Positions 11,617 through 63,745 of a DNA stretch of 64,000 nt are shown here, piece by piece (position 1 is the stretch's first letter; every line of letters starts with the position of its first letter). Below the pieces are notes generated by a model. That model did not search any database and was not told the DNA's origin. It saw nothing but the letters and a program-made list of their open reading frames with translations. Origin of the DNA: Nemertoderma westbladi (lineage: Eukaryota; Animalia; Xenacoelomorpha). The translations under genes and the position numbers were made by a program. The stretch is from NCBI GenBank assembly GCA_032718475.1, contig JAUCBJ010008678.1, forward strand, positions 57,613 through 121,612. Reading direction: 5' to 3'.

Positions 11617-11766
11617 GGGGGGGGGGGGGGGGGGGGGGGGGGGTTTGGAACTCCAATCTCAAAAAATATTCAACGACACGCCTTGGTATATTAAGACTTA
11701 ACACGACAAAGCTACAGCGGGCGCAGAAATTATTTGGGTTGGAGCGGGGGGGGGGGGGGGGGGGGG
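11617..11766 (+). repeat. Two poly-G tracts (G27 at 11617-11643, G21 at 11746-11766)
   Basis: Directly visible homopolymers; G-quadruplex capable. Confidence 0.9.
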
Positions 11767-15200: not shown

Positions 15201-15585
15201 TAGTGTCTTTTTACATTTCAACAGGTTGGTTCTTCTTTATCCTCTGTCTTCTGTTCTAGTAGCCAATTTATCGACCCCAGCCTGGTGTACCACTGAGGGA
15301 CGCGGTCCTTGTTGACCCGGGCGACGACGGAGCCGGTATTTCTCCTGGAGGGTTCTCATACTCATATCTTTCAGTTGCGGGAGTAAACCGCTTGTGGTCG
15401 CAACTCCTACAAGCGTTTTCTCAGCAGGTCGTCGTTGGTTGATTACCTCCCGCCGACCTTTTCAGCATCTCTAGCCGTTGGTTGATTACCTTCCGCCTAT
15501 CCATGGCCTACAGCCCTGCTGCCGACTGTAGGGGTCCATTTGTTACACCCTGAACCAAGTATGCCTCCTGGGTTAGGGTTAAGGT
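12227..15585 (-). mobile_element. Full-length but mutated RTE-type LINE (APE endonuclease plus RT) with 14-bp TSD
   Basis: APE motifs CIQEHR, GDLNAQ, QLDYIL, SDHRIV (14358-15221) and RT motifs QNGFR, FVDFKKAFDS, GVLQGDTLAP, DFADD (12983-13570). (TAG)n tail at ~12227-12239. TSD TAAGGGTTATTATA at 12213-12226 and 15586-15599. Several stops and frameshifts. Confidence 0.93.
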
Positions 15586-30458: not shown

Positions 30459-30477
30459 TGCGTGTTGTGTTGTGGTG

Positions 30478-36531: not shown

Positions 36532-37156
36532 TGCATCGGTGGCGATGTGTGGCGATATATTACAGCAGTAATCTGGTAATACAGTCTGACAGTAATACCA
36601 TGTGCATAAAGTACTAGTATGTGCATGATCATGACAAGTGCTAGTATGTACATGATCTTTTAACTTGATGAAATAAGTTCTAGAATAAAAAGTTAAGATT
36701 AAAACCAAGGCGTCCCAAACTATTTGATTGTTAAATTTGCGAGAAATTTCCACTGCGTTTCTGTTTACTATGTAATAGGCGATACTATTGTATGTGTGTG
36801 TACCCATAAACGAATTTTTTCTACTATAGCTAGTTTTTGTATTAGTAATTTTTGTAATAGTATTGTAGTATAATTTTCGCCAATACTGTAGTATTTCAAC
36901 TGCATTTCTTTTATTTAGCTACACTTTATCTATAAACTAAGAAACTAAGATAATGAATACCGGCCTCTAATAAAATTTACACTGTATGCGAGCATCGCGT
37001 CCTGAATATATACTATGTTCTAGAAGTCCTTGAACATACTGAAACCCCCATAAATTTTTCAAAAACAATAATTTTGTGTTGAAAATTTTACAGAAGATAG
37101 CATTCATATCTAGAATCCTTGGGCCAAACTCTTGGACCGAGACCTGCAACCCAAGG

Positions 37157-38747
37157 CGATATCTCCTTTGCAGAAGTGAAGACTGCTGCAAAGAGCATTA
37201 AGACCAATCGTGCCAGTGGAGTAGATGGTGTTCCCCCTGAGGTCTTTAAAATACCTGAGTGTTTAAAGCTCATCTATCCCATCATAGTAGACATGTACCG
37301 AACAACAAGAGTCCCACAAGAAATGAAAACAAATAAGTTGGTGCCTGTTCCCAAGAAGGGCAACCTAACACTCTATGGTTCTTTTCGGGGAATCTCATTG
37401 ATCTCGATTGCTGCAAAGCTATACAATAGGATTCTATTAAATCGCATCAGGGATCCCATTGAGAGACTGCTCCGTGGAAATCAGAATGGGTTCCGTAAAG
37501 GTCGTGGGACCATGGAGCCCATTTTGGCACTTAGAAGGATAATTGAAGAGTTATCAAAAAAGAAAGACAGGCATCTGGCTGTTATCTTTGTTGACTTCTT
37601 CAAGGCCTTTGATTCAGTCTCTCGCTCACGTATGTTCAGCATACTTTCATTATATAGGATTCCTGATGAAATTATTGCAGCAATCAGATCAGTATACGAT
37701 GGTTCGACAACATTTGTGTCTACTGTTGATGGTGACACAGAACCATTTGAAGTGTTATGGGGCGTCCTCCAAGGAGACACACTTGCACCATTCTTGTTCA
37801 TTATTGTGGTTGACTATGTTCTACGCATGTCCTTAGATCATTATAATGATGATGGGGTGATGATAACTCCACCTACTGGCTCCAGAAGTCGAGGAAATCC
37901 TGCCAAGTACCTAACTGATCTAGACTTTGCTGATGACTTAGGAGTACTCTCAGAATCATTAGAGGGAGCCCAACGGCTCCTCAGCTCATTAGAACATGCT
38001 GCTTCTAGTGTTGGTCTTTTTATTAACTCCAGAAAGACCAAAATTCTGACAGTTAACTTTGAAAGTCCTCAGCAAGTCTCTGATCGGATGAGCATAAGCT
38101 CAAAGGATGGTATGCTTGAGCATGTGGACGACTTCTGTTACCTGGGATCATGGATCCGGAAGTCAGGTGAGGACCTTCGAATACGTAAGGGAAAGGCATG
38201 GGCAGCCTTGAATAGGCTTTCCAGGATTTGGAAGTCACCGAGAATTAATCGGAAACTTACGGTCCGATTATTTAGAGCAGCAGTAGTTCCAGTACTCCTC
38301 TACGGGAGTCCATGCTGGGCTCTAACTGCTGAGGACACCAAATCTCTGGATGGCACATTCACAAGAATGCTACGCCGGGTTCATTGTGTCAAGTACAATG
38401 CACACATCTCCAACCAGACACTATATAACATTGGAGGTGTCTCATTGGTTCCCCCAAGCTTGACACTAGAACAAAATCGCCTCAGCTTTGCAGGACATTG
38501 CTTTCGCCGTGAGGACCAGCCAGTGCATAATCTTGTACTTTGGCAGCCTCATGGAGTGAATAAGCATGGTGGACAGCCCATGACTTTCTTGAGACGCATC
38601 TTAAAGGACACTGGCCTTAAAGATGCGGATGATCTAGCAAATGTCATGGGTGATAGGGAGTTGTGGCGGTGCAATTTTGTTGACAAGCCGGCACAGCATT
38701 CTTAAAAATGCAGCTGCAATGCAGCATGCCGATCCTAGTAGTAGTAG
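37157..38747 (+). mobile_element. 5'-truncated RTE-type LINE with intact RT frame, inserted in the 42-bp repeat
   Basis: RT motifs FRGISL, QNGFR, FVDFFKAFDS, GVLQGDTLAP, DFADD, YLGS; stop at 38705; (TAG)n tail at 38736-38747; 12-bp TSD TGCAACCCAAGG (37145-37156, 38748-38759). Confidence 0.92.
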
Positions 38748-39596
38748 TGCAACCCAAGGTTCAATGGGCCAAACTCTTGGACCGAGAACTGCAACCCAAG
38801 GTTCAATGGGCCAAACTCTTGGACCGAGAACTACAACCCAAGGTTCAATGGGCCAAACTCTTGGACCGAGACCTGCAACCCAAGGTTCAATGGGCCAAAC
38901 TCTTGGACCGAGACCTGCAACCCAAGGTTCAATGGGCCAAACTCTTGGACCGAGACCTGCAACCCAAGGTTCAATGGGCCAAACTCTTGGACCGAGACCT
39001 GCAACCCAAGGTTCAATGGGCCAAACTCTTGGACCGAGAACTGCAACCCAAGGTTCAATGGGCCAAACTCTTGGACCGAGACCTGCAACCCAAGGTTCAA
39101 TGGGCCAAACTCTTGGACCGAGAACTGCAACCCAAGGTTCAATGGGCCAAACTCTTGGACCGAGACCTGCACCCCAAGGTTCATTGGGCCAAACTCTTGG
39201 ACCGAGACCTGCAACCCAAGGTTCAATGGGCCAAACTCTTGGACCGAGACCTCCAACCCAAGGTTCAATGGGCCAAACTCTTGGACCGAGAACTGCAACC
39301 CAAGGTTCAATGGGCCAAACTCTTGGACCGAGACCTGCAACCCAAGGTTCAATGGGCCAAACTCTTGGACAGAGACCTGCAACCCAAGGTTCAATGGGCC
39401 AAACTCTTGGACCGAGACCTGCAACCCAAGGTTCAATGGGCCAAACTCTTGGACCGAGACCTGCAACCCAAGGTTCAATGGGCCAAACTCTTGGACCGAG
39501 ACCTGCAACCCAAGGTTCAATGGGCCAAACTCTTGGACCGAGAACTGCAACCCAAGGTTCAATGGGCCAAACTCTTGGACCGAGACCTGCAACCCA
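38748..39596. repeat. 42-bp minisatellite, ~20 copies (one more partial unit at 37120-37156)
   Basis: Unit TGCAACCCAAGGTTCAATGGGCCAAACTCTTGGACCGAGA(C/A)C. Confidence 0.96.
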
Positions 39597-42082: not shown

Positions 42083-42335
42083 CTAACTGTATAAATAAGA
42101 GGGTTGACTGAGTATTTTCTCCGGGTTTGTTGGTGACGTAGACCGAGCCGGTCCGCCATCCCCTCCACCAGCTGATCTCGTCGGTTTGTACTCGTCGGCT
42201 TCACCAGATATCTCCATCTTCTGTAGAATGAGTTTAATAAGATCGGATTGGGCCTCCAATGAATCCTGTATTGCGTTGAGTTTGTGCGTAGCTTGCGTTA
42301 AGTCGGATTGCAAGGATAGAATCTCCGGATCTTTC
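42083..42335 (-). CDS. TRPA1: TRPA1-like channel, terminal coding exon (C-terminal coiled coil)
   Basis: Acceptor aacag|G in phase 2; KDPEILSLQSDL..LEAQSDLIKLILQKMEISGEAD resembles the TRPA1 C-terminal coiled-coil motif ELIKLIIQKMEI; stop at 42083. Confidence 0.85.
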
Positions 42336-42461
42336 CTGTTAATTAATTAATTAATTATTAATAAATCCATTGACATGAAATTTTTGTTACCTCTCTGTAA
42401 TTATCAGAAAATCAAGTGCCGAATGTGAAAATATCATGTACATAATATAATGTATGTACAA

Positions 42462-44116: not shown

Positions 44117-44220
44117 CTATATGGATCGTCTTCAGCAATGTCATCAACCTTGGATCGAAGAATCAACTCCATCACTCGAAGACATCCGTGTTTAACAGCG
44201 TTGGGAAACACAACGTAAAC
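44117..44220 (-). CDS. TRPA1: TRPA1-like channel, internal exon (VYVVFPNAVK..DDPY)
   Basis: ttttaag|GTT..AG|gttaga. Phases 0 and 2 fit both neighbours, and VFPN matches the conserved VYPN after the TRP-like helix. Confidence 0.8.
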
Positions 44221-44275
44221 CTTAAAAATCACATGAGAATAAATACTGCAATTAGGCCATCATACAGCCTATGAT

Positions 44276-45524
44276 GGGCGCTACTCCTATCTGATACCCG
44301 AAGGTAGGTGTGGGCGCTACTCCTATCTGCTACCCGAAGGTAGGGGTGGGCGCTACTCCTATCTGCTACCCGATGGTAGGGGTGGGCGCTACTCCTACCT
44401 GCTATCCTAAGATCGGGATGGGCGCTACTCCTATCTGCTACCAGAAGGTAGGGGTGGGCGCTACTCCAATCTGCTACCCGAAGGTAGGGGTGGGCTCTAC
44501 TCCTATCTGCTACCCGAAGGTAGGGGTGGGCACTACTCTTATCTGCTACCCGAAGGTAGGGGTGGGCGCTACTCCACTCTGCTACCCGAAGGTAGGGGTG
44601 GCCGCTACTCCTCACTGCTACCCGAAGGTAGGGGTGGGTGCTACTCCTCACTGCCACCCGAAGGTAGGGGTGGGCGCTACTCCACTCTGCTACCCGAAGG
44701 TAGGGGTGGGCGCTACTCCTCTCTGCTACCCGAAGGTAGGGGTGGGCGCTACTCCTATCTGCTACCCGAAGGTAGGGTTGGGCGCTACTCCTACCTACTA
44801 CCCGAGGGTAGGGGTGGGCGTTACTCCTATCTGATACACGAAGGTAGGGGTGGGCGCTACTCCTATCTGCTACCCGAAGGTAGGGGTGGGCGCTACTCCT
44901 ATCTGCTACCCGAAGGTAGGGGTGTTCGCTACTCCTATCTGCTACCCGAAGGTAGGGGTCGACGCTACTTCTATCTGCTACCCGAAGGTAGGGGCCTGCG
45001 CTACTCCTATCTGCTACCCGAAGGTAGGGGTGGGCGCTACTCCTATCTGCTACCCGAAGGTAGGGGTGGGCGCTACTCCTATCTGCTACCCGAGGGTAGG
45101 GGTGGGCGTTACTCCTATATGCTACCCGAAGGTAGGGGTGGGCGCTACTCCTATATGCTACCCGAAGGTAGGGGTGGGCGCTACTCCTATATGCTACCCG
45201 AAGGTAGGGGTGGGCGCTACTTCTATCTGCTACCCTAAGGTCGGGATGGGCGCTACTCCTATCTGATACACGAAGGTAGGGGTGGGCGCTACTCCTATAT
45301 GCTACCCGAAGGTAGGGGTGGGCGCTACTCCTATATGCTACCCGAAGGTAGGGGTGGGCGCTACTCCTATATGCTACCCGAAGGTAGGGATGGGCGCTAC
45401 TTCTATCTGCTACCCTAAGGTCGGGATGGGCGCTACTCCTATCTGCTACACGAAGGTAGGGGTGGGTGCTACTCCTATCTGCTACCCGAAGGTAGGGGTG
45501 GGCGCTACTCCTATCTGTTACCCG
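44276..45524. repeat. Intronic 36-bp minisatellite, ~35 copies
   Basis: Unit GGGCGCTACTCCTATCTGCTACCCGAAGGTAGGGGT, containing the hairpin CTACC-CGAA-GGTAG. Confidence 0.96.
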
Positions 45525-45747
45525 ATAGTATCCATATTTCGCACTGATGAGTCTCTAAACAAGACACATTAGATCTTAACGCACACTTAGCGGTACAACG
45601 GGAACCTGGCTTCTACAGGAGGAATAGAGAAAGGGTTTGATACAGGTTGTCTAAGTACCTCACATTTTCAGGTGGCAATTACCCATACCCGTATAATATA
45701 TTACAAATAATAAATAAGAAAGCCAATATGAGTTAAATAGTTATTAC

Positions 45748-45884
45748 CTCCTTGTTAACTTTTTCTTGTATCCAGTGGAATTTTGGTAACTTTCTTTCAA
45801 GTTCTGTGTGCGTATCAACCTGCATTGCCAGTCGTTTCAGATGCGCGTTCTTCTGAACTGCGGCGATATCTCCAACAGCCAATC
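45748..45884 (-). CDS. TRPA1: TRPA1-like channel, exon encoding the end of S6 and the TRP-like helix
   Basis: tttcag|GA TTG GCT GTT GGA GAT ATC..AAG GAG|gtaata encodes GLAVGDIAAVQKNAHLKRLAMQVDTHTELERKLP, close to TRPA1 GLAVGDIAEVQKHASLKRIAMQV. Confidence 0.93.
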
Positions 45885-48800
45885 CTGAAAAAGAAATAAA
45901 TAAATAAAGGATATCTCCAACAGCCAATCCTGAAAAGAACAAAATAAATAAAGGATATCTCCAACCTGTAAAGAACAAAATAAATAAAGTATATCTCCAC
46001 AGCCAGACCTGTAAAGAACAAAATAAATAATGGATATCTCCAAAGCCAGGCCTGTAAAGAACAAAATAAATAAAGGATATCTCCAAAGCCAGGCCTGTAA
46101 AGAACAAAATAAATAAAGGATATCTCCAACAGCCAATCCTGTAAAGAACAAAATAAATAAAGGATATCTCCAACAGCCAATCCTGAAAAGAACAAAATAA
46201 ATAAAGGATATCTCCACAGCCAGACCTGTAAAGAACAAAATAAATAATGGATATCTCCACAGCCAGACCTGTAAAGAACAAAATAAATAATGGATATCTC
46301 CACAGCCAGACCTGTAAAGAACAAAATAAATAATGGATATCTCCACAGCCAGACCTGTAAAGAACAAAATAAATAATGGATATCTCCACAGCCAGTCCTG
46401 TAAAGAACAAAATAAATAAAGGATATCCCCAACAGCCAATCCTGTAAAGAACAAAATAAATAAAGGATATCTCCACAGCCAGACCTGTAAAGAACAAAAT
46501 AAATAAAGGATATCTCCAAAGCCAGGCCTGTAAAGAACAAAATAAATAAAGGATATCTCCAACAGCCAATCCTGTAAAGAACAAAATAAATAAAGGATAT
46601 CTCCACAGCCAGACCTGTAAAGAACAAAATAAATAATGGATATCTCCACAGCCAGACCTGTAAAGAACAAAATAAATAATGGATATCTCCACAGCCAGAC
46701 CTGTAAAGAACAAAATAAATAAAGGATATCTCCAACAGCCAATCCTGTAAAGAACAAAATAAATAAAGGATATCTCCACAGCCAGACCTGTAAAGAACAA
46801 AATAAATAATGGATATCTCCACAGCCAGTCCTGTAAAGAACAAAATAAATAAAGGATATCTCCAACAGCCAATCCTGTAAAGAACAAAATAAATAAAGGA
46901 TATCTCCAACAGCCAATCCTGAAAATAACAAAATAAATAAAGGATATCTCCAACAGCCAGACCTGTAAAGAACAAAATAAATAATGGATATCTCCACAGC
47001 CAGACCTGTAAAGAACAAAATAAATAAAGGATATCTCCAAAGCCAGACCTGTAAAGAACAAAATAAATAAAGGATATCTCCAACAGCCAATCCTGAAAAG
47101 AACAAAATAAATAAAGGATATCTCCAACCTGTAAAGAACAAAATAAATAAAGGATATCTCCAACAGCCAATCCTGAAAAGAACAAAATAAATAAAGGATA
47201 TCTCCAACAGCCAATCCTGAAAAGAACAAAATAAATAAAGGATATCTCCAACAGCCAGACCTGTAAAGAACAAAATAAATAATGGATATCTCCACAGCCA
47301 GACCTGTAAAGAACAAAATAAATAAAGGATATCTCCAAAGCCAGACCTGTAAAGAACAAAATAAATAAAGGATATCTCCAACAGCCAATCCTGAAAAGAA
47401 CAAAATAAATAAAGGATATCTCCAACCTGTAAAGAACAAAATAAATAAAGGATATCTCCAACAGCCAATCCTGAAAAGAACAAAATAAATAAAGGATATC
47501 TCCAACAGCCAATCCTGAAAAGAACAAAATAAATAAAGGATATCTCCAACCTGTAAAGAACAAAATAAATAAAGTATATCTCCACAGCCAGACCTGTAAA
47601 GAACAAAATAAATAAAGGATATCTCCAACAGCCAATCCTGAAAAGAACAAAATAAATAAAGGATATCTCCACAGCCAGACCTGTAAAGAACAAAATAAAT
47701 AATGGATATCTCCACAGCCAGACCTGTAAAGAACAAAATAAATAATGGATATCTCCACAGCCAGACCTGTAAACAACAAAATAAATAAAGGATATCTCCA
47801 ACAGCCAATCCTGTAAAGAACAAAATAAATAATGGATATCTCCACAGCCAGACCTGTAAAGAACAAAATAAATAAAGGATATCTCCAACCTGTAAAGAAC
47901 AAAATAAATAAAGGATATCTCCAACAGCCAATCCTGAAAAGAACAAAATAAATAAAGGATATCTCCAACCTGTAAAGAACAAAATAAATAAAGTATATCT
48001 CCACAGCCAGACCTGTAAAGAACAAAATAAATAATGGATATCTCCAAAGCCAGGCCTGTAAAGAACAAAATAAATAAAGGATATCTCCAAAGCCAGGCCT
48101 GTAAAGAACAAAATAAATAAAGGATATCTCCAACAGCCAATCCTGTAAAGAACAAAATAAATAAAGGATATCTCCAACAGCCAATCCTGAAAAGAACAAA
48201 ATAAATAAAGGATATCTCCACAGCCAGACCTGTAAAGAACAAAATAAATAATGGATATCTCCACAGCCAGACCTGTAAAGAACAAAATAAATAATGGATA
48301 TCTCCACAGCCAGACCTGTAAAGAACAAAATAAATAATGGATATCTCCACAGCCAGACCTGTAAAGAACAAAATAAATAATGGATATCTCCACAGCCAGT
48401 CCTGTAAAGAACAAAATAAATAAAGGATATCTCCAACAGCCAATCCTGTAAAGAACAAAATAAATAAAGGATATCTCCACAGCCAGACCTGTAAAGAACA
48501 AAATAAATAAAGGATATCTCCAAAGCCAGGCCTGTAAAGAACAAAATAAATAAAGGATATCTCCAACAGCCAATCCTGTAAAGAACAAAATAAATAAAGG
48601 ATATCTCCAACAGCCAATCCTGAAAAGAACAAAATAAATAAAGGATATCTCCACAGCCAGACCTGTAAAGAACAAAATAAATAATGGATATCTCCACAGC
48701 CAGACCTGTAAAGAACAAAATAAATAATGGATATCTCCACAGCCAGACCTGTAAAGAACAAAATAAATAAAGGATATCTCCAACAGCCAATCCTGTAAAG

Positions 48801-51800
48801 AACAAAATAAATAAAGGATATCTCCACAGCCAGACCTGTAAAGAACAAAATAAATAATGGATATCTCCACAGCCAGTCCTGTAAAGAACAAAATAAATAA
48901 AGGATATCTCCAACAGCCAATCCTGTAAAGAACAAAATAAATAAAGGATATCTCCAACAGCCAATCCTGAAAATAACAAAATAAATAAAGGATATCTCCA
49001 ACAGCCAGACCTGTAAAGAACAAAATAAATAATGGATATCTCCACAGCCAGACCTGTAAAGAACAAAATAAATAAAGGATATCTCCAAAGCCAGACCTGT
49101 AAAGAACAAAATAAATAAAGGATATCTCCAACAGCCAATCCTGAAAAGAACAAAATAAATAAAGGATATCTCCAACCTGTAAAGAACAAAATAAATAAAG
49201 GATATCTCCAACCTGTAAAGAACAAAATAAATAAAGTATATCTCCACAGCCAGACCTGTAAAGAACAAAATAAATAAAGGATATCTCCAACAGCCAATCC
49301 TGAAAATAACAAAATAAATAAAGGATATCTCCACAGCCAGACCTGTAAAGAACAAAATAAATAATGGATATCTCCACAGCCAGACCTGTAAAGAACAAAA
49401 TAAATAATGGATATCTCCACAGCCAGACCTGTAAACAACAAAATAAATAAAGGATATCTCCAACAGCCAATCCTGTAAAGAACAAAATAAATAATGGATA
49501 TCTCCACAGCCAGACCTGTAAAGAACAAAATAAATAAAGGATATCTCCAAAGCCAGACCTGTAAAGAACAAAATAAATAAAGGATATCTCCAACAGCCAA
49601 TACTGAAAAGGAAATAAATAAATAATGGATATCTCCAACAGCCAGACCTGTAAAGAACTAAATAAATAAAGGATATCTCCAAAGCCAGACCTGTAAAGAA
49701 CAAAATAAATAAAGGATATCTCCAACAGCCAATCCTGAAAAGGAAATAAATAAATAAAGGATATCTCCAACAGCCAGACCTGTAAAGAACTAAATAAATA
49801 AAGGATATCTCCAACAGCCAATCCTGTAAAGAACAAAATAAATAAAGGATATCTCCACAGCCAGACCTGTAAAGAACAAAATAAATAATGGATATCTCCA
49901 AAGCCAGACCTGTAAAGAACAAAATAAATAAAGGATATCTCCAACAGCCAATCCTGTAAAGAACAAAATAAATAAAGGATATCTCCAACAGCCAGACCTG
50001 TAAAGAACAAAATAAATAAAGGATATCTCCACAGCCAGACCTGTAAAGAACAAAATAAATAAAGGATATCTCCAAAGCCAGACCTGTAAAGAACAAAATA
50101 AATAAAGGATATCTCCAACAGCCAATCCTGAAAAGGAAATAAATAAATAAAGGATATCTCCAACAGCCAGACCTGTAAAGAACTAAATAAATAAAGGATA
50201 TCTCCAAAGCCAGACCTGTAAAGAACAAAAAAAATAAAGGATATCTCCAACAGCCAATCCTGTAAAGAACAAAATAAATAAAGGATATCTCCAACAGCCA
50301 ATCCTGAAAAGAACAAAATAAATAAAGGATATCTCCAACAGCCAGACCTGTAAAGAACAAAATAAATAAAGGATATCTCCAAAGCCAGACCTGTAAAGAA
50401 CAAAATAAATAAAGGATATCTCCAACAGCCAATCCTGAAAAGAACAAAATAAATAAAGGATATCTCCACAGCCAGACCTGTAAAGAACAAAATAAATAAA
50501 GGATATCTCCAAAGCCAAACCTGTAAAGAACAAAATAAATAAAGGATATCTCCAACAGCCAGACCTGTAAAGAACAAAATAAATAATGGATATCTCCACA
50601 GCCAGACCTGTAAAGAACTAAATAAATAAAGGATATCTCCAAAGCCAGACCTGTAAAGAACAAAATAAATAAAGGATATCTCCAACAGCCAATCCTGAAA
50701 AGGAAATAAATAAATAAAGGATATCTCCAACAGCCAGACCTGTAAAGAACTAAATAAATAAAGGATATCTCCAACAGCCAATCCTGTAAAGAACAAAATA
50801 AATAAAGGATATCTCCACAGCCAGACCTGTAAAGAACAAAATAAATAATGGATATCTCCAAAGCCAGACCTGTAAAGAACAAAATAAATAAAGGATATCT
50901 CCAACAGCCAATCCTGTAAAGAACAAAATAAATAAAGGATATCTCCAACAGCCAGACCTGTAAAGAACAAAATAAATAAAGGATATCTCCACAGCCAGAC
51001 CTGTAAAGAACAAAATAAATAAAGGATATCTCCAAAGCCAGACCTGTAAAGAACAAAATAAATAAAGGATATCTCCAACAGCCAATCCTGAAAAGGAAAT
51101 AAATAAATAAAGGATATCTCCAACAGCCAGACCTGTAAAGAACTAAATAAATAAAGGATATCTCCAAAGCCAGACCTGTAAAGAACAAAAAAAATAAAGG
51201 ATATCTCCAACAGCCAATCCTGTAAAGAACAAAATAAATAAAGGATATCTCCAACAGCCAATCCTGAAAAGAACAAAATAAATAAAGGATATCTCCAACA
51301 GCCAGACCTGTAAAGAACAAAATAAATAAAGGATATCTCCAAAGCCAGACCTGTAAAGAACAAAATAAATAAAGGATATCTCCAACAGCCAATCCTGAAA
51401 AGAACAAAATAAATAAAGGATATCTCCACAGCCAGACCTGTAAAGAACAAAATAAATAAAGGATATCTCCAAAGCCAAACCTGTAAAGAACAAAATAAAT
51501 AAAGGATATCTCCAACAGCCAGACCTGTAAAGAACAAAATAAATAATGGATATCTCCACAGCCAGACCTGTAAAGAACAAAATAAATAAAGGATATCTCC
51601 AAAGCCAGACCTGTAAAGAACAAAATAAATAAAGGATATCTCCAACAGCCAATCCTGAAAAGGAAATAAATAAATAAAGGATATCTCCAACAGCCAGACC
51701 TGTAAAGAACTAAATAAATAAAGGATATCACCAAAGCCAGACCTGTAAAGAACAAAATAAATAAAGGATATCTCCAACAGCCAATCCTGTAAAGAACAAA

Positions 51801-54800
51801 ATAAATAAAGGATATCTCCAACAGCCAATCCTGAAAAGAACAAAATAAATAAAGGATATCTCCAACAGCCAGACCTGTAAAGAACAAAATAAATAAAGGA
51901 TATCTCCAAAGCCAGACCTGTAAAGAACAAAATAAATAAAGGATATCTCCAACAGCCAATCCTGAAAAGAACAAAATAAATAAAGGATATCTCCACAGCC
52001 AGACCTGTAAAGAACAAAATAAATAAAGGATATATCCACAGCCAGACCTGTAAAGAACAAAATAAATAAAGGATATCTCCAAAGCCAAACCTGTAAAGAA
52101 CAAAATAAATAAAGGATATCTCCAAAGCCAGACCTGTAAAGAACAAAATAAATAAAGGATATCTCCACAGCCAGACCTGTAAAGAACAAAATAAATAAAG
52201 GATATCTCCACAGACCTGTAAAGAACAAAATAAATAAAGGATATCTCCAACAGCCAATCCTGAAAAGAACAAAATAAATAAAGGATATCTCCACAGCCAG
52301 ACCTGTAAAGAACAAAATAAATAAAGGATATCTCCAAAGCCAGACCTGTAAAGAACAAAATAAATAAAGGATATCTCCAACAGCCAATCCTGAAAAGAAC
52401 AAAATAAATAAAGGATATCTCCAACCTGTAAAGAACAAAATAAATAAAGGATATCTCCAACCTGTAAAGAACAAAATAAATAAAGTATATCTCCACAGCC
52501 AGACCTGTAAAGAACAAAATAAATAAAGGATATCTCCAACAGCCAATCCTGAAAAGAACAAAATAAATAAAGGATATCTCCAACAGCCAGACCTGTAAAG
52601 AACAAAATAAATAAAGGATATCTCCAAAGCCAGACCTGTAAAGAACAAAATAAATAAAGGATATCTCCAACAGCCAATCCTGAAAAGAACAAAATAAATA
52701 AAGGATATCTCCACAGCCAGACCAGTAAAGAACAAAATAAATAAAGGATATATCCACAGCCAGACCTGTAAAGAACAAAATAAATAAAGGATATCTCCAA
52801 AGCCAAACCTGTAAAGAACAAAATAAATAAAGGATATCTCCAAAGCCAGACCTGTAAAGAACAAAATAAATAAAGGATATCTCCACAGCCAGACCTGTAA
52901 AGAACAAAATAAATAAAGGATATCTCCACAGACCTGTAAAGAACAAAATAAATAAAGGATATCTCCAACAGCCAATCCTGAAAAGAACAAAATAAATAAA
53001 GGATATCTCCACAGCCAGACCTGTAAAGAACAAAATAAATAAAGGATATCTCCAACAGCCAATCCTGAAAAGAACAAAATAAATAAAGGATATCTCCAAC
53101 AGCCAATCCTGAAAAGGAAATAAATAAATAAAGGATATCTCCACAGACCTGTAAAGAACAAAATAAATAAAGGATATCTCCACAGCCAGACCTGTAAAGA
53201 ACAAAATAAATAAAGGATATCTCCAACCTGTAAGGAACAAAATAAATAAAGGATATCTCCACAGCCAGACCTGTAAAGAACAAATAAATAAAGGATATCT
53301 CCACAGCCAGACCTGTAAAGAACAAAATAAATAAAGGATATCTCCAAAGCCAGACCTGTAAAGAACAAAATAAATAAAGGATATCTCCACAGCCAGACCT
53401 GTAAAGAACAAAATAAATAAAGGATATCTCCAACCTGTAAAGAACAAAATAAATAAAGGATATCTCCACAGCCAGACCTGTAAAGAACAAAATAAATAAA
53501 GGATATCTCCAACCTGTAAAGAACAAAATAAATAAAGGATATCTCCACAGCCAGACCTGTAAAGAACAAAATAAATAAAGGATATCTCCAAAGCCAGACC
53601 TGTAAAGAACAAAATAAATAAAGGATATCTCCACAGCCAGACCTGTAAAGAACAAAATAAATAAAGGATATCTCCACAGCCAGACCTGTAAAGAACAAAA
53701 TAAATAAAGGATATCTCCAAAGCCAGACCTGTAAAGAACAAAATAAATAAAGGATATCTCCACAGCCAGACCTGTAAAGAACAAAATAAATAAAGGATAT
53801 CTCCACAGACCTGTAAAGAACAAAATAAATAAAGGATATCTCCAAAGCCAGACCTGTAAAGAACAAAATAAATAAAGGATATCTCCACAGCCAGACCTGT
53901 AAAGAACAAAATAAATAAAGTATATCTCCACAGCCAGACCTGAAAAGAACAAAATAAATAAAGGATATCTCCACAGACCTGTAAAGAACAAAATAAATAA
54001 AGGATATCTCCAAAGCCAGACCTGTAAAGAACAAAATAAATAAAGGATATCTCCACAGCCAGACCTGTAAAGAACAAAATAAATAAAGTATATCTCCAAA
54101 GCCAAACCTGTAAAGAACAAAATAAATAAAGTATATCTCCACAGCCAGACCTGAAAAGAACAAAATAAATAAAGGATATCTCCACAGACCTGTAAAGAAC
54201 AAAATAAATAAAGGATATCTCCACAGCCAGACCTGTAAAGAACAAAATAAATAAAGGATATCTCCACAGCCAGACCTGTAAAGAACAAAATAAATAAAGG
54301 ATATCTCCACAGACCTGTAAAGAACAAAATAAATAAAGGATATCTCCAACAGCCAATCCTGAAAAGAACAAAATAAATAAAGGATATCTCCACAGCCAGA
54401 CCTGTAAAGAACAAAATAAATAAAGGATATCTCCAACAGCCAATCCTGAAAAGAACAAAATAAATAAAGGATATCTCCAACAGCCAGACCTGTAAAGAAC
54501 AAAATAAATAAAGGATATCTCCACAGCCAGACCTGTAAAGAACAAAATAAATAAAGGATATCTCCAACCTGTAAGGAACAAAATAAATAAAGGATATCTC
54601 CACAGCCAGACCTGTAAAGAACAAATAAATAAAGGATATCTCCACAGCCAGACCTGTAAAGAACAAAATAAATAAAGGATATCTCCAAAGCCAGACCTGT
54701 AAAGAACAAAATAAATAAAGGATATCTCCACAGCCAGACCTGTAAAGAACAAAATAAATAAAGGATATCTCCAACCTGTAAAGAACAAAATAAATAAAGG

Positions 54801-57800
54801 ATATCTCCACAGCCAGACCTGTAAAGAACAAAATAAATAAAGGATATCTCCAACAGCCAGACCTGTAAAGAACTAAATAAATAAAGGATATCTCCAACAG
54901 CCAATCCTGTAAAGAACAAAATAAATAAAGGATATCTCCACAGCCAGACCTGTAAAGAACAAAATAAATAATGGATATCTCCAAAGCCAGACCTGTAAAG
55001 AACAAAATAAATAAAGGATATCTCCAACAGCCAATCCTGTAAAGAACAAAATAAATAAAGGATATCTCCAACAGCCAGACCTGTAAAGAACAAAATAAAT
55101 AAAGGATATCTCCACAGCCAGACCTGTAAAGAACAAAATAAATAAAGGATATCTCCAAAGCCAGACCTGTAAAGAACAAAATAAATAAAGGATATCTCCA
55201 ACAGCCAATCCTGAAAAGGAAATAAATAAATAAAGGATATCTCCAACAGCCAGACCTGTAAAGAACTAAATAAATAAAGGATATCTCCAAAGCCAGACCT
55301 GTAAAGAACAAAAAAAATAAAGGATATCTCCAACAGCCAATCCTGTAAAGAACAAAATAAATAAAGGATATCTCCAACAGCCAATCCTGAAAAGAACAAA
55401 ATAAATAAAGGATATCTCCAACAGCCAGACCTGTAAAGAACAAAATAAATAAAGGATATCTCCAAAGCCAGACCTGTAAAGAACAAAATAAATAAAGGAT
55501 ATCTCCAACAGCCAATCCTGAAAAGAACAAAATAAATAAAGGATATCTCCACAGCCAGACCTGTAAAGAACAAAATAAATAAAGGATATCTCCAAAGCCA
55601 AACCTGTAAAGAACAAAATAAATAAAGGATATCTCCAACAGCCAGACCTGTAAAGAACAAAATAAATAATGGATATCTCCACAGCCAGACCTGTAAAGAA
55701 CAAAATAAATAAAGGATATCTCCAAAGCCAGACCTGTAAAGAACAAAATAAATAAAGGATATCTCCAACAGCCAATCCTGAAAAGGAAATAAATAAATAA
55801 AGGATATCTCCAACAGCCAGACCTGTAAAGAACTAAATAAATAAAGGATATCACCAAAGCCAGACCTGTAAAGAACAAAATAAATAAAGGATATCTCCAA
55901 CAGCCAATCCTGTAAAGAACAAAATAAATAAAGGATATCTCCAACAGCCAATCCTGAAAAGAACAAAATAAATAAAGGATATCTCCAACAGCCAGACCTG
56001 TAAAGAACAAAATAAATAAAGGATATCTCCAAAGCCAGACCTGTAAAGAACAAAATAAATAAAGGATATCTCCAACAGCCAATCCTGAAAAGAACAAAAT
56101 AAATAAAGGATATCTCCACAGCCAGACCTGTAAAGAACAAAATAAATAAAGGATATATCCACAGCCAGACCTGTAAAGAACAAAATAAATAAAGGATATC
56201 TCCAAAGCCAAACCTGTAAAGAACAAAATAAATAAAGGATATCTCCAAAGCCAGACCTGTAAAGAACAAAATAAATAAAGGATATCTCCACAGCCAGACC
56301 TGTAAAGAACAAAATAAATAAAGGATATCTCCACAGACCTGTAAAGAACAAAATAAATAAAGGATATCTCCAACAGCCAATCCTGAAAAGAACAAAATAA
56401 ATAAAGGATATCTCCACAGCCAGACCTGTAAAGAACAAAATAAATAAAGGATATCTCCAAAGCCAGACCTGTAAAGAACAAAATAAATAAAGGATATCTC
56501 CAACAGCCAATCCTGAAAAGAACAAAATAAATAAAGGATATCTCCAACCTGTAAAGAACAAAATAAATAAAGGATATCTCCAACCTGTAAAGAACAAAAT
56601 AAATAAAGTATATCTCCACAGCCAGACCTGTAAAGAACAAAATAAATAAAGGATATCTCCAACAGCCAATCCTGAAAAGAACAAAATAAATAAAGGATAT
56701 CTCCAACAGCCAGACCTGTAAAGAACAAAATAAATAAAGGATATCTCCAAAGCCAGACCTGTAAAGAACAAAATAAATAAAGGATATCTCCAACAGCCAA
56801 TCCTGAAAAGAACAAAATAAATAAAGGATATCTCCACAGCCAGACCAGTAAAGAACAAAATAAATAAAGGATATATCCACAGCCAGACCTGTAAAGAACA
56901 AAATAAATAAAGGATATCTCCAAAGCCAAACCTGTAAAGAACAAAATAAATAAAGGATATCTCCAAAGCCAGACCTGTAAAGAACAAAATAAATAAAGGA
57001 TATCTCCACAGCCAGACCTGTAAAGAACAAAATAAATAAAGGATATCTCCACAGACCTGTAAAGAACAAAATAAATAAAGGATATCTCCAACAGCCAATC
57101 CTGAAAAGAACAAAATAAATAAAGGATATCTCCACAGCCAGACCTGTAAAGAACAAAAAAATAAAGGATATCTCCAACAGCCAATCCTGAAAAGAACAAA
57201 ATAAATAAAGGATATCTCCAACAGCCAATCCTGAAAAGGAAATAAATAAATAAAGGATATCTCCACAGACCTGTAAAGAACAAAATAAATAAAGGATATC
57301 TCCACAGCCAGACCTGTAAAGAACAAAATAAATAAAGGATATCTCCAACCTGTAAGGAACAAAATAAATAAAGGATATCTCCACAGCCAGACCTGTAAAG
57401 AACAAATAAATAAAGGATATCTCCACAGCCAGACCTGTAAAGAACAAAATAAATAAAGGATATCTCCAAAGCCAGACCTGTAAAGAACAAAATAAATAAA
57501 GGATATCTCCACAGCCAGACCTGTAAAGAACAAAATAAATAAAGGATATCTCCAACCTGTAAAGAACAAAATAAATAAAGGATATCTCCACAGCCAGACC
57601 TGTAAAGAACAAAATAAATAAAGGATATCTCCAACCTGTAAAGAACAAAATAAATAAAGGATATCTCCACAGCCAGACCTGTAAAGAACAAAATAAATAA
57701 AGGATATCTCCAAAGCCAGACCTGTAAAGAACAAAATAAATAAAGGATATCTCCACAGCCAGACCTGTAAAGAACAAAATAAATAAAGGATATCTCCACA

Positions 57801-60800
57801 GCCAGACCTGTAAAGAACAAAATAAATAAAGGATATCTCCAAAGCCAGACCTGTAAAGAACAAAATAAATAAAGGATATCTCCACAGCCAGACCTGTAAA
57901 GAACAAAATAAATAAAGGATATCTCCACAGACCTGTAAAGAACAAAATAAATAAAGGATATCTCCAAAGCCAGACCTGTAAAGAACAAAATAAATAAAGG
58001 ATATCTCCACAGCCAGACCTGTAAAGAACAAAATAAATAAAGTATATCTCCACAGCCAGACCTGAAAAGAACAAAATAAATAAAGGATATCTCCACAGAC
58101 CTGTAAAGAACAAAATAAATAAAGGATATCTCCAAAGCCAGACCTGTAAAGAACAAAATAAATAAAGGATATCTCCACAGCCAGACCTGTAAAGAACAAA
58201 ATAAATAAAGTATATCTCCAAAGCCAAACCTGTAAAGAACAAAATAAATAAAGTATATCTCCACAGCCAGACCTGAAAAGAACAAAATAAATAAAGGATA
58301 TCTCCACAGACCTGTAAAGAACAAAATAAATAAAGGATATCTCCACAGCCAGACCTGTAAAGAACAAAATAAATAAAGGATATCTCCACAGCCAGACCTG
58401 TAAAGAACAAAATAAATAAAGGATATCTCCACAGACCTGTAAAGAACAAAATAAATAAAGGATATCTCCAACAGCCAATCCTGAAAAGAACAAAATAAAT
58501 AAAGGATATCTCCACAGCCAGACCTGTAAAGAACAAAATAAATAAAGGATATCTCCAACAGCCAATCCTGAAAAGAACAAAATAAATAAAGGATATCTCC
58601 AACAGCCAGACCTGTAAAGAACAAAATAAATAAAGGATATCTCCACAGCCAGACCTGTAAAGAACAAAATAAATAAAGGATATCTCCAACCTGTAAGGAA
58701 CAAAATAAATAAAGGATATCTCCACAGCCAGACCTGTAAAGAACAAATAAATAAAGGATATCTCCACAGCCAGACCTGTAAAGAACAAAATAAATAAAGG
58801 ATATCTCCAAAGCCAGACCTGTAAAGAACAAAATAAATAAAGGATATCTCCACAGCCAGACCTGTAAAGAACAAAATAAATAAAGGATATCTCCAACCTG
58901 TAAAGAACAAAATAAATAAAGGATATCTCCACAGCCAGACCTGTAAAGAACAAAATAAATAAAGGATATCTCCAAAGCCAGACCTGTAAAGAACTAAATA
59001 AATAAAGGATATCTCCAACAGCCAATCCTGTAAAGAACAAAATAAATAAAGGATATCTCCACAGCCAGACCTGTAAAGAACAAAATAAATAAAGGATATC
59101 TCCAAAGCCAGACCTGTAAAGAACAAAATAAATAAAGGATATCTCCAACAGCCAGATCCTGTAAAGAACAAAATAAATAAAGGATATCTCCAACAGCCAG
59201 ACCTGTAAAGAACAAAATAAATAAAGGATATCTCCACAGCCAGACCTGTAAAGAACAAAATAAATAAAGGATATCTCCAAAGCCAGACCTGTAAAGAACA
59301 AAATAAATAAAGGATATCTCCAACAGCCAATCCTGAAAAGGAAATAAATAAATAAAGGATATCTCCAACAGCCAGACCTGTAAAGAACAAAATAAATAAA
59401 GGATATCTCCAAAGCCAGACCTGTAAAGAACAAAATAAATAAAGGATATCTCCAACAGCCAGATCCTGTAAAGAACAAAATAAATAAAGGATATCTCCAA
59501 CAGCCAATCCTGAAAAGAACAAAATAAATAAAGGATATCTCCAACAGCCAGACCTGTAAAGAACAAAATAAATAAAGGATATCTCCAAAGCCAGACCTGT
59601 AAAGAACAAAATAAATAAAGGATATCTCCAACAGCCAGACCTGTAAAGAACAAAATAAATAAAGGATATCTCCACAGCCAGACCTGTAAAGAACAAAATA
59701 AATAAAGGATATCTCCAAAGCCAAACCTGTAAAGAACAAAATAAATAAAGGATATCTCCAACAGCCAGACCTGTAAAGAACAAAATAAATAAAGGATATC
59801 TCCACAGCCAGACCTGTAAAGAACAAAATAAATAAAGGATATCTCCAAAGCCAGACCTGTAAAGAACAAAATAAATAAAGGATATCTCCACAGCCAACCT
59901 GTAAAGAACAAAATAAATAAAGGATATCTCCAAAGCCAGACCTGTAAAGAACAAAATAAATAAAGGATATCTCCAACAGCCAATCCTGAAAAGAACAAAA
60001 TAAATAAAGGATATCTCCACAGCCAGACCTGTAAAGAACAAAATAAATAAAGGATATCTCCAAAGCCAGACCTGTAAAGAACAAAATAAATAAAGGATAT
60101 CTCCAACAGCCAATCCTGTAAAGAACAAAATAAATAAAGGATATCTCCACAGCCAACCTGTAAAGAACAAAATAAATAAAGGATATCTCCAACAGCCAGA
60201 CCTGTAAAGAACAAAATAAATAAAGGATATCTCCAAAGCCAGACCTGTAAAGAACAAAATAAATAAAGGATATCTCCAAAGCCAGACCTGTAAAGAACAA
60301 AATAAATAAAGGATATCTCCACAGCCAGACCTGTAAAGAACAAAATAAATAAAGGATATCTCCACCAGACCTGTAAAGAACAAAATAAATAAAGGATATC
60401 TCCAAAGCCAGACCTGTAAAGAACAAAATAAATAAAGGATATCTCCACAGCCAGACCTGTAAAGAACAAAATAAATAAAGGATATCTCCAAAGCCAGACC
60501 TGTAAAGAACAAAATAAATAAAGGATATCTCCAACAGCCAATCCTGTAAAGAACAAAATAAATAAAGGATATCTCCAACAGCCAACCTGTAAAGAACAAA
60601 ATAAATAAAGGATATCTCCACAGCCAGACCTGTAAAGAACAAAATAAATAAAGGATATCTCCAACAGCCAATCCTGAAAAGAACAAAATAAATAAAGGAT
60701 ATCTCCACAGCCAGACCTGTAAAGAACAAAATAAATAAAGGATATCTCCACAGACCTGTAAAGAACAAAATAAATAAAGGATATCTCCACAGCCAGACCT

Positions 60801-62719
60801 GTAAAGAACAAAATAAATAAAGGATATCTCCACAGCCAGACCTGTAAAGAACAAAATAAATAAAGGATATCTCCAACAGCCAGACCTGTAAAGAACAAAA
60901 TAAATAAAGGATATCTCCAAAGCCAGACCTGTAAAGAACAAAATAAATAAAGGATATCTCCAAAGCCAGACCTGTAAAGAACAAAATAAATAAAGGATAT
61001 CTCCACAGCCAGACCTGTAAAGAACAAAATAAATAAAGGATATCTCCACAGACCTGTAAAGAACAAAATAAATAAAGGATATCTCCACAGCCAGACCTGT
61101 AAAGAACAAAATAAATAAAGGATATCTCCAAAGCCAGACCTGTAAAGAACAAAATAAATAAAGGATATCTCCACAGCCAGACCTGTAAAGAACAAAATAA
61201 ATAAAGGATATCTCCACAGACCTGTAAAGAACAAAATAAATAAAGGATATCTCCAACAGACCTGTAAAGAACAAAATAAATAAAGGATATCTCCACAGCC
61301 AGACCTGTAAAGAACAAAATAAATAAAGGATATCTCCACAGCCAGACCTGTAAAGAACAAAATAAATAAAGGATATCTCCACAGCCAGACCTGTAAAGAA
61401 CAAAATAAATAAAGGATATCTCCACAGCCAGACCTGTAAAGAACAAAATAAATAAAGGATATCTCCAAGCCAGACCTGTAAAGAACAAAATAAATAAAGG
61501 ATATCTCCACAGCCAGACCTGTAAAGAACAAAATAAATAAAGGATATCTCCAGCCACCTGTAAAGAACAAAATAAATAAAGGATATCTCCCAGCCAGACC
61601 TGTAAAGAACAAAATAAATAAAGGATATCTCCACAGCCAGACCTGTAAAGAACAAAATAAATAAAGGATATCTCCACAGCCAGACCTGTAAAGAACAAAA
61701 TAAATAAAGGATATCTCCAAAGCCAGACCTGTAAAGAACAAAATAAATAAAGGATATCTCCACAGCCAGACCTGTAAAGAACAAAATAAATAAAGGATAT
61801 CTCCACAGCCAGACCTGTAAAGAACAAAATAAATAAAGGATATCTCCACAGCCAGACCTGTAAAGAACAAAATAAATAAAGGATATCTCCACAGCCAGAC
61901 CTGTAAAGAACAAAATAAATAAAGGATATCTCCACAGCCAGACCTGTAAAGAACAAAATAAATAAAGGATATCTCCACAGCCAGACCTGTAAAGAACAAA
62001 ATAAATAAAGGATATCTCCACAGCCAGACCTGTAAAGAACAAAATAAATAAAGGATATCTCCACAGCCAGACCTGTAAAGAACAAAATAAATAAAGGATA
62101 TCTCCACAGCCAGACCTGTAAAGAACAAAATAAATAAAGGATATCTCCACAGCCAGACCTGTAAAGAACAAAATAAATAAAGGATATCTCCACAGCCAGA
62201 CCTGTAAAGAACAAAATAAATAAAGGATATCTCCACAGCCAGACCTGTAAAGAACAAAATAAATAAAGGATATCTCCACAGCCAGACCTGTAAAGAACAA
62301 AATAAATAAAGGATATCTCCACAGCCAGACCTGTAAAGAACAAAATAAATAAAGGATATCTCCACAGCCAGACCTGTAAAGAACAAAATAAATAAAGGAT
62401 ATCTCCACAGCCAGACCTGTAAAGAACAAAATAAATAAAGGATATCTCCACAGCCAGACCTGTAAAGAACAAAATAAATAAAGGATATCTCCAACAGCCA
62501 GACCTGTAAAGAACAAAATAAATAAAGGATATCTCCAACAGCCAGACCTGTAAAGAACAAAATAAATAAAGGATATCTCCAACAGCCAGACCTGTAAAGA
62601 ACAAAATAAATAAAGGATATCTCCACAGCCAGACCTGTAAAGAACAAAATAAATAAAGGATATCTCCACAGCCAGACCTGTAAAGAACAAAATAAATAAA
62701 GGATATCTCCACAGACCTG
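45865..62719 (-). repeat. ~16.9-kb tandem array (~390 units, mainly 43 bp; variants of about 36, 39, 44 and 45 bp) derived from the intron/exon junction
   Basis: Minus-strand unit CTTTATTTATTTTGTTCTTT(A/T)CAG|G(T/A)(C/T)TGGCTGT(T)GGAGATATC equals the pyrimidine tract, AG and first ~20 nt of exon 45748-45884. Confidence 0.97.
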
Positions 62720-62855
62720 TTATACGTTATTAATTTAATATCATTACCAATAATTACTGTAGTTCAAATATTTCAATATATTTTTTTAGCTCAATATTTG
62801 CAATTCTATTTTCCTAGTATATTGTTTTTGGTCCGAATTATGTTTCTACCAGGAA

Positions 62856-62922
62856 CCGGACAATTTGGTCCCGGACAATAATTATATCCCGGACAATTCG
62901 GTCCCATACAATTCGGTCCCAT
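62856..62922. repeat. Short degenerate repeats of GGACAATTCGGTCCC (possible transposon sub-terminal relic)
   Basis: Three to four imperfect copies are visible. Confidence 0.45.
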
Positions 62923-62987
62923 TAATGTATATGTGAAATATGTGAAATATTGAACTATAATAATAAACAAATCATTATAAAACTAAC

Positions 62988-63484
62988 CGATAGTCAAGTT
63001 AGTAAGAAGTATTGACATCAATATAATGAAAAGGGTCACAAGGATTATTGTGATCTCTTTATAGAACTGAGTTTCAACCTTTTCATCGTAATAAGGATAA
63101 ACAAATGAGTTAATAAAATCCACCTCGCCAAGCATCATATCTAAAGTTCTAACGAGTGCGACAACGGGGTTGGAGAATGCGTTGTTCTCTTCTCGAGGTA
63201 TTATTATATGGAACGTCAGAGCGAAGGCTACGATCAACCAGATAAATACAACGAATACGACAACTATAGTCTTCGAGATTTCTATAAACATTACAACGTA
63301 AATGCCTAGGGCCTGGAAGTGTTGGAACAGTAGTAGGAAGTTGAACCAGGACAGCCACGTTCCAACAGCGCCAATCTCGATTACATGGAGTTTGTGTTCC
63401 AACCCCAACAAGTATATTATTGTGAAAGAACCACAGGTTGTGTACAGAGCCCATTCAATAAGGTTGACCAGGTCCATAAAGTAC
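62988..63484 (-). CDS. TRPA1: TRPA1-like channel, transmembrane exon (approximately S3 to S6 and pore)
   Basis: atctag|G TAC TTT..ATC G|gttagt encodes YFMDLVNLIEW..LSWFNFLLLFQHF..GIYVVMFIEI..RTLDMMLGEVDF..LLTNLTI. Its phase-1 end joins GA of the next exon to give IGLAVGDI. Confidence 0.93.
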
Positions 63485-63745
63485 CTAGATAATATATAAT
63501 CTAATGACAACAGAACTACAAATTAACTATAAACGCAAAAAATAACAATAATTTACTGAAGCCTTCCCGCCCGATTCCCGCAAACATTACTTTATATCTA
63601 CATCTTTATATTTGATAAATTTATTTGATAAAATTATCGCTCTATATGACTTTCACAAAAATTATATAGAAATTTATATTCACATATTAAAAATCGATTG
63701 CATTTAATATTAATATTATACCATTTCCTTTAAAATTGTCGGCCT

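Follow-up and report, generated by a model that had tools for sequence, protein, structure and literature searches.

The term 'mirage' was reportedly first used by Canestro et al. in 2002, for Adh3. Minisatellites of this kind in amphioxus duplicate intron-exon boundaries and leave regular splicing undisturbed (PMC3087553). They have been described in Adh3, in the globin genes BflGb6 and BflGb9, in troponin C and in PGBD5 (PMC3087553, PMC3902484), and the PGBD5 paper states that the Adh and troponin C mirages likewise leave splicing undisturbed (PMC3902484). In BflGb6 the repeat takes in the 3' end of an intron together with the following exon's 5' portion, as 3 or 6 units of 150-160 bases, and the units of the Adh3 mirage measure 10-72 bases (PMC3087553). 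Here we describe an array of the same type in a TRPA1-like gene of Nemertoderma westbladi (Xenacoelomorpha), located in a stretch of 64,000 nucleotides of GenBank assembly GCA_032718475.1 (contig JAUCBJ010008678.1, positions 57,613 to 121,612 of the forward strand). This whole stretch was analysed and is referred to as the window, and all coordinates are positions within it. The gene lies on the minus strand, and our analysis confirms that the intron separating its S5-S6 and TRP-helix exons is filled by an array of copies of its own 3' splice site. We think it probable that the array arose as a copy of the intron/exon boundary and represents a mirage minisatellite of very large size, which is spliced out with the last acceptor being used, and which is a near-neutral by-product of repeat instability and not a control device.

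Minisatellites that carry splice sites on the donor side are known from human genes. These are the 37-base variable number tandem repeat in intervening sequence (IVS) 7 of F7, with 5-9 units, the repeat of the interferon-inducible gene 6-16, with 25 pseudo-sites, and that of CBS IVS13, with 15-20 units (PMC1557585). In all three the exon-adjacent donor is used, and only the two nearest pseudo-sites leak in 6-16 and CBS (PMC1557585).

Analysis of the window with Tandem Repeats Finder (TRF) returned one array at 45865..62714, in the TRPA1-like intron, with a period of 43 bases, 394.3 copies, 92% matches, 3% indels and a score of 27805. On the minus strand its most frequent unit is GTCTGGCTGTGGAGATATC plus CTTTATTTATTTTGTTCTTTACAG, in which the copied start of the exon precedes a pyrimidine tract and CAG. 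The unit corresponds to the last ~24 bases of the intron (pyrimidine tract and CAG) and the first 19-20 bases of the exon, repeated head-to-tail. Every unit contains TTTAT-type branch-point-like motifs, a pyrimidine tract, CAG and an exon-start copy of 12-20 bases; the TTTAT motifs lie 12-20 bases before the unit's AG, and the nearest upstream AG is ~30 bases back, in GGAGAT. At the true junction the sequence is tttatttatttatttctttttcag / GATTGGCTGTTGGAGATATC GCCGCAG (here and below, a slash marks the cut). This junction forms the terminal unit of the array and runs on into GCCGCAGTTCAG..., while every other unit runs on into CTTTATT..., and the sequence beyond the array's end encodes (G)LAVGDIAAVQKNAHLKRLAMQV. 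At its distal end the array starts with ...cgtataacag / gtctgtggagatatcc at 62717/62716, which confirms the acceptor-like beginning (ataacag, ~62717) that had been described in an earlier note on this DNA.

A pattern search found 391 acceptor-like sites in register, comprising 390 decoys and the true site, with four merged units (81-89 bases) concealing a few degenerate sites. Both this count and the TRF copy number agree with the ~390 copies of a pyrimidine tract, CAG and ~20 exon nucleotides that the earlier note had claimed, and the donor (62987) and acceptor (45885) that it had assigned to an intron consisting almost entirely of satellite proved to be exact. Units of 43 bases (219) and 44 bases (107) are the most numerous, followed by those of 36 (22), 39 (16), 45 (11), 42 (7) and 40 bases (4). 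The exon-derived head of the unit reads GTCTGGCTGTGGAGATATC in 129 units, GATTGGCTGTTGGAGATATC, the exon's exact 20 bases, in 81 (80 decoys and the true site), GTCTGGCTTTGGAGATATC in 58 and GTCTGGCTGTTGGAGATATC in 37, and the remaining units have shorter forms. The two bases after the AG are GT in 297 of the 390 decoys, GA in 87 and GC in 6, and the real exon begins with GA; directly before the cut, 331 decoys have ACAG and 59 have TCAG. For ten decoys, which lie at depths of 3.8 to 13.4 kb within the array, 43 of the 44 positions (-24..+20) agree with the true site, and these ten, and no other of the 390, have the pyrimidine-tract class of the true site. The decoys had been called near-perfect, which has to be narrowed: ten agree with the true site to this extent, 80 have the exact 20-base head, and 297 start with GT and not GA. 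An offset scan of the array against itself revealed the higher-order blocks that are listed in Table 1.

These features are those of a mirage. The array is a head-to-tail minisatellite, each of its units holds intronic and exonic sequence of one authentic boundary, and the authentic boundary is terminal. As in the amphioxus mirages, the AG is retained in many of the boundary-spanning units, the cluster has the authentic site at its edge, splicing continues (see below), and there are signs of unequal exchange and homogenisation inside the cluster. The unit is from the acceptor side, as it is in BflGb6. Unlike the amphioxus mirages, of which BflGb6 has 3 and 6 units, the TRPA1 array has 390 units over 16.8 kb and contains higher-order blocks of 0.96 and 4.12 kb. 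It also resembles the minisatellites of F7, 6-16 and CBS, in that the authentic splice site is in the terminal unit, identical pseudo-sites lie beyond it and the exon-adjacent site is the one that is used. Those three, however, involve 5' splice sites and tens of units at most, and the function of their pseudo-sites was examined with 50 constructs, whereas the TRPA1 array involves 3' splice sites and is known from sequence and contigs. The repeat type has already been described and named, a point that the earlier note missed, and the TRPA1 array is a new and extreme example of it. Our literature search found no published description of this array. Among repeats of this type, which have received little notice beyond work on lancelets, it is the largest that we can cite.

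The splicing of the intron was assessed with four sequencing runs (X1-X4), which were kept as contigs and were all labelled 'DNA?'; X1 and X4 turned out to contain spliced complementary DNA (cDNA). Contigs were aligned to the two array flanks only, each with ~1.3 to 2 units, and joints to interior decoys are visible in these alignments as loose ends only. A contig of 3912 bases from X1 (depth 76.3) aligned with its positions 591-1090 on 62987..63486 and 453-592 on 45746..45885, and a contig of 507 bases from X4 (depth 15.6) aligned with its positions 1-77 on 62987..63063 and 76-215 on 45746..45885. Donor 62988 is joined to the true acceptor 45884 in both of the runs with spliced contigs, which are from two studies. 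Loose ends at the donor follow the TRP-helix exon through GATATCGCCGCAGTTCA, with GCCGCAGTTCA after GATATC, sequences found in the real exon only; at the acceptor, the loose ends correspond exactly to the S6 exon's end. No donor-to-decoy joint was present among the loose ends listed at the donor (two flanks). One X1 loose end carries a sequence that we take to be a template-switch cDNA primer. X1 had no cover on array units in either flank, and absent cover of this kind proves nothing.

These data show that the TRPA1-like gene is expressed and that the true acceptor is used in both cDNA-bearing runs. Regular splicing is kept, for the dominant assembled transcript. The earlier note had required that the gene be transcribed and had supposed that the spliceosome bypasses the decoys, and the spliced contigs of X1 and X4, with their dominant 62988 to 45884 joint, bear out both points. 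It had also proposed that the array would be a neutral satellite if only acceptor 45885 were used and expression were independent of copy number; the first half of this was found, for the dominant transcript.

What distinguishes the true acceptor from the decoys does not appear to be on the intron side, as ten decoys share its pyrimidine-tract class and 43 of 44 positions. On paper, each unit would constitute a complete acceptor module, with a branch-point-like motif, a pyrimidine tract and AG. Since the units are alike on the intron side and only the last has an exon and a donor, exon definition would select the last unit, the sole one that stands before the real 137-base exon with its own donor AAGGAG/gtaata, 137 bases past the exon start. 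Pyrimidine-tract strength was considered as the discriminator and rejected on account of the ten decoys with the tract class of the true site. Masking RNA structure was not found either, folds of five distal units (z -1.17) and of the last units with the exon (z +0.35) being no better than those of shuffled sequences. By analogy with the human donor-side minisatellites, the decoys most likely to leak would be the two nearest, +45 and +81 bases from the true exon start, both of which are in frame. If used, these would lengthen the joint of S6 and TRP helix by 15 or 27 residues. The array amounts to ~390 natural serial replicates of one 3' splice site, ten of them nearly identical to it over 44 bases, among which the real one is still chosen, and it can be regarded as a natural test of 3' splice-site choice. 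The outcome speaks for downstream exon context as what decides, and against the sufficiency of a branch-point-like motif, a pyrimidine tract, AG and 20 exon bases.

The identity of the gene is based on several searches. In a comparison of the S5-S6 open frame with solved structures, all nine of the chains listed were TRPA1 (E 3e-26 to 5e-24). A search of a large protein collection with the S5-S6 exon returned a single relative, an ascidian TRPA1-like protein with 41% identity, and no relatives of similar length. In the Atlas, nothing beyond generic clusters of ion channels turned up. When this ascidian protein was used as the query in a tblastn search, three minus-strand exons were found: one for S5-S6 that reaches to 62988, one for the TRP helix that starts from 45884, and one (~42337..42191) for the C-terminal coiled coil. 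The TRP-helix exon reads GLAVGDIAAVQKNAHLKRLAMQV and is 67% identical to the TRP-helix stretch of the ascidian protein. With one extra exon that was located via cDNA, the spliced frame runs without a stop as far as a TAG at 42085. The gene therefore has S5, pore and S6 followed by a TRP-like helix and a C-terminal coiled coil, as known from the exons in the window; the ankyrin N-terminus lies beyond it.

Table 1. Positions of the array, its blocks and the exons and introns of the TRPA1-like gene within the window.
Feature	Coordinates	Strand	Description and evidence
S5-pore-S6 exon	62988..63486	minus	ends ...CTTGACTATCG, donor gttagt; first base 63484-63486 (2-base alignment ambiguity at upstream acceptor); PDB TRPA1; tblastn 40% to ascidian protein; X1 and X4 cDNA; open spliced translation
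Array intron	62987..45885	minus	GT-AG rule; 17,103 bases, of which the array (62716..45885) makes up 98.4%
Non-array part of intron	62717..62987	minus	271 bases: donor GTTAGT, 15-base repeat patch at 62856-62920, flank ending ...ataacag; sequence and TRF
Mirage array	45885..62716	minus	390 decoy acceptors and the true one; TRF, pattern search, tandem joints in contigs
18 identical 43-base units, near distal end	61721..62493	minus	exact run of 730 bases at offset 43
4.12 kb higher-order block, two tandem copies	50708..58975	minus	copies differ by a 1-base indel; exact runs of 2328 bases (offset 4123) and 1817 bases (offset 4122)
960-base higher-order block, tandem	49638..51578	minus	exact run of 981 bases at offset 960
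Two nearest decoys	exon-like starts 45929, 45965	minus	+45 and +81 bases upstream of true exon start; in frame, stop-free
Authentic 3' splice site	45885..45910	minus	cctttatttatttatttctttttcag; best pyrimidine-tract class in array; junction read in cDNA contigs
TRP-helix exon	45748..45884	minus	137 bases (GT-AG rule; aligner: 45746..45885); encodes (G)LAVGDIAAVQKNAHLKRLAMQVDTHTELERKLPKFHWIQEKVNKE; tblastn, cDNA
Next intron	44221..45747	minus	1527 bases; 82% is a separate 36-base array; removed in X1 and X4 contigs
Following exon	44117..44220	minus	start from cDNA loose ends; end inferred from open frame and GT
Last coding exon, coiled-coil region	42083..42335	minus	stop TAG 42085-42083; tblastn 39% to residues 1149-1197 of ascidian protein; spliced translation

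Variation and additional repeats were observed in this part of the gene. At position 44194, in the exon after the TRP-helix exon, the X1 transcript has T where the window and the X4 transcript have A (plus strand), a coding-strand polymorphism between samples, and the individual sequenced in X1 is thus probably not the one that was assembled. The 15-base patch at 62856-62920 (unit CCGGACAATTCGGTC) had a summed word depth of ~380,000 in X2 and X3, compared to 6-22 for single-copy flanks, and its unit was also present in many short X1 contigs; it is part of a hyper-abundant repeat of the genome. The next intron, which was spliced out in X1 and X4 like the array intron, contains a 36-base array at 44275-45525 with 34.8 copies (unit TGGGCGCTACTCCTATCTGCTACCCGAAGGTAGGGG), situated 53 bases from the acceptor and ~220 from the donor. 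This is an ordinary intronic array and not a mirage.

The formation of the array can be pictured in a few steps. We take the exon to be the source and the array to be the copy because GLAVGDI is conserved in the ascidian and the solved TRPA1 proteins. The array may have originated with a single tandem duplication of 44 bases across the 3' splice site, a change that would have been tolerated since the remainder of the exon still followed the downstream copy. Slippage and unequal exchange could then have enlarged the array, as is suggested by the exact blocks, while a variant shorter by 1 base spread, and whole-block duplications of 960 bases and 4.12 kb would be recent. The setting is rich in repeats, as five arrays of at least 0.8 kb with unrelated units make up 43.6% of the window, and several reverse-transcriptase frames of the type described below are situated downstream of the array. 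This indicates that the formation of arrays here needs no special purpose.

Several points have to be set against a neutral mirage that is invariably spliced at its last acceptor. Contigs drop rare variants, and minor use of decoys could go unseen. X4 has, in addition to its spliced contig, contigs composed of array units only, at a depth of 5-7 compared to the exon depth of 15.6, and these could be precursor messenger RNA (pre-mRNA), retained intron or carried-over DNA. That exon definition is the selecting principle is something that we infer. The frame continuous with the exon is the sole one of the three without a stop over the 16.8 kb, which could hint at selection. At the borders of the array, an X2 contig ends 27 letters into it on the proximal side, and the distal border is bridged by no DNA contig with 31 letters on each side (an X3 contig, 62691..63500, reaches 26 letters in, and none from X2 does). 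The length of 16.8 kb is the assembled one, and the near-perfect copy of the 4.12 kb block may be either genuine or a mistake of assembly.

With respect to the reading frames, none of those on the gene strand has a stop within the unit. Over the whole array there are 13 gene-strand stops (0, 4 and 9 per frame), compared to 404, 380 and 420 on the opposite strand. Only two types of mutation, multiplied by the duplication of blocks, account for the 13 stops, and the empty exon frame is therefore weak evidence of selection. Selection for an open exon frame was considered and rejected, the chance of 0 stops there being estimated at ~0.1-0.4 with few independent events. The near-absence of gene-strand stops also results in a stop-to-stop open frame of 5,676 codons across the array (45733-62763, minus strand), of which a gene predictor could make a giant false exon. 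Introns of this type should serve as a warning for gene prediction and assembly, where they can lead to false exons and to repeats that are collapsed or expanded.

The presence of the array in other samples was apparent from X2 and X3, which are DNA runs of other samples. An X3 contig of 404 bases covers 45560..45922 with no differences, bridging the border of array and exon with 58 letters inside the TRF array, and tandem joints that go back 42, 43 or 44 bases were present in contigs of X2, X3 and X4. The summed word depth of unit bins in X2 and X3 was ~400-1400x that of single-copy flanking bins, a rough figure and not a copy number, which we take to mean that the unit is highly repeated in other individuals. 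We consider it unlikely that the array, although real, has had its length or internal blocks inflated or scrambled by assembly and has far fewer true units, a situation that would be compatible with other readings. The 4.12 kb and 960-base near-perfect block copies are a possible product of a mis-joined long-read assembly, no spanning read was seen, and a published mirage was found to be mis-assembled in a genome draft (PMC3087553). However, exact block duplications are also normally produced by unequal exchange, the unit variants are numerous and ordered, and the word depth of the unit in X2 and X3, rough as it is, is high.

It is quite unlikely that the array is a regulatory decoy, in which acceptor modules bind U2AF and U2 non-productively and slow or block removal of the intron or divert transcripts, with copy number setting the output of functional TRPA1. 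In its favour, published work describes intron retention promoted by decoy splice sites (PMC7373989), branch-point-like motifs, a pyrimidine tract and AG are present in each of the units, and the array-only contigs of X4 occur beside a spliced one. Use of decoys would also have consequences for the protein: with everything downstream of the decoy retained, we computed that 124 of the 390 decoys are in frame, all 124 giving a stop-free insert, and 266 are out of frame, all 266 reaching a premature stop. Set against this, the dominant assembled transcript uses the true site in both cDNA-bearing runs, and published mirages reportedly leave splicing undisturbed (PMC3087553, PMC3902484). The exact duplication of whole blocks suggests a turnover that is fast and neutral, and repeat formation needs no function in a window of which 43.6% is unrelated arrays. 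The earlier note had suggested titration of U2AF, tuning of productive splicing versus nonsense-mediated decay (NMD), and isoforms at the channel gate, and we found no support for these here. An effect of copy number on TRPA1 output, if there were one, would amount to a novel type of cis-regulatory polymorphism in a sensory channel, and nothing here shows such an effect.

We regard as very unlikely a reading in which the array is both a copy-number-dependent brake and a source of isoforms. The ~390 modules would hold U2AF and U2 and delay the intron, the +45 and +81 decoys would add their 15 or 27 residues and poison tetramers, and the frame would be stop-free since in-frame products are tolerated better than NMD targets. 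Were this true, array-length polymorphism would tune chemical or thermal sensitivity between individuals.

The consensus of donor sites is MAG/GURAGU and that of recursive sites is YnNCAG/GTRAGT. Ratchet points of fly and human genes are like the TRPA1 units in having an acceptor directly before GT in a long intron (PMC8605326, PMC6110457), and are unlike them in being single conserved sites, the TRPA1 units being tandem acceptor copies with non-donor letters past the GT and no intermediates seen. Stepwise removal of the intron, in which CAG/GT units would act as zero-length recursive splice sites (ratchet points) that regenerate a GT donor at the S6 exon and yield an identical final mRNA, is highly improbable: ratchet points are juxtaposed acceptors and donors in long fly introns (PMC8605326), GT directly follows AG in 297 of the 390 decoys versus GA in the real exon, and the mature junction is the same for the direct and stepwise routes, but the CAG/GT units continue with CTGG in place of a consensus donor, the regenerated TCG/GTCTGG fits 4 of 9 positions of the donor consensus versus 6 of 9 for the real donor TCG/GTTAGT, C at +3 and U at +4 are poor donor letters, AG/GT is also an ordinary exon-start context, and no intermediates are visible in the contigs.

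Elsewhere in the window we noted other tandem arrays and open frames. A 52-base array at 1-6825 has 131 copies with 94% matches and extends past the start of the window. The 63-base array at 34334-36447 (33.6 copies) lies within a stop-free minus-strand frame of 1,217 codons (33265-36918), which has no Pfam match, and neither does the frame of 928 codons that abuts it (30478-33264). At 38748-39596 there is a 42-base array of 20.2 copies with 97% matches, with several open frames of 266-369 codons on both strands. Frames resembling the endonuclease and reverse transcriptase of long interspersed nuclear elements (LINEs) were found at 27645-30503 (minus), 18616-20493 (plus), 37101-38702 (plus), and 12986-13633 and 14361-15236 (minus), with Pfam E values of 1e-26 to 1e-32. 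A LINE-like frame of 953 residues is unbroken; its matches in the protein collection did not exceed 31% identity (over partial lengths), and the best one with a name came from the annelid Owenia (27%). A PHD-finger frame (17683-18612) is located directly in front of one of the LINE-like frames, and a run of 27 G occupies 11617-11643.

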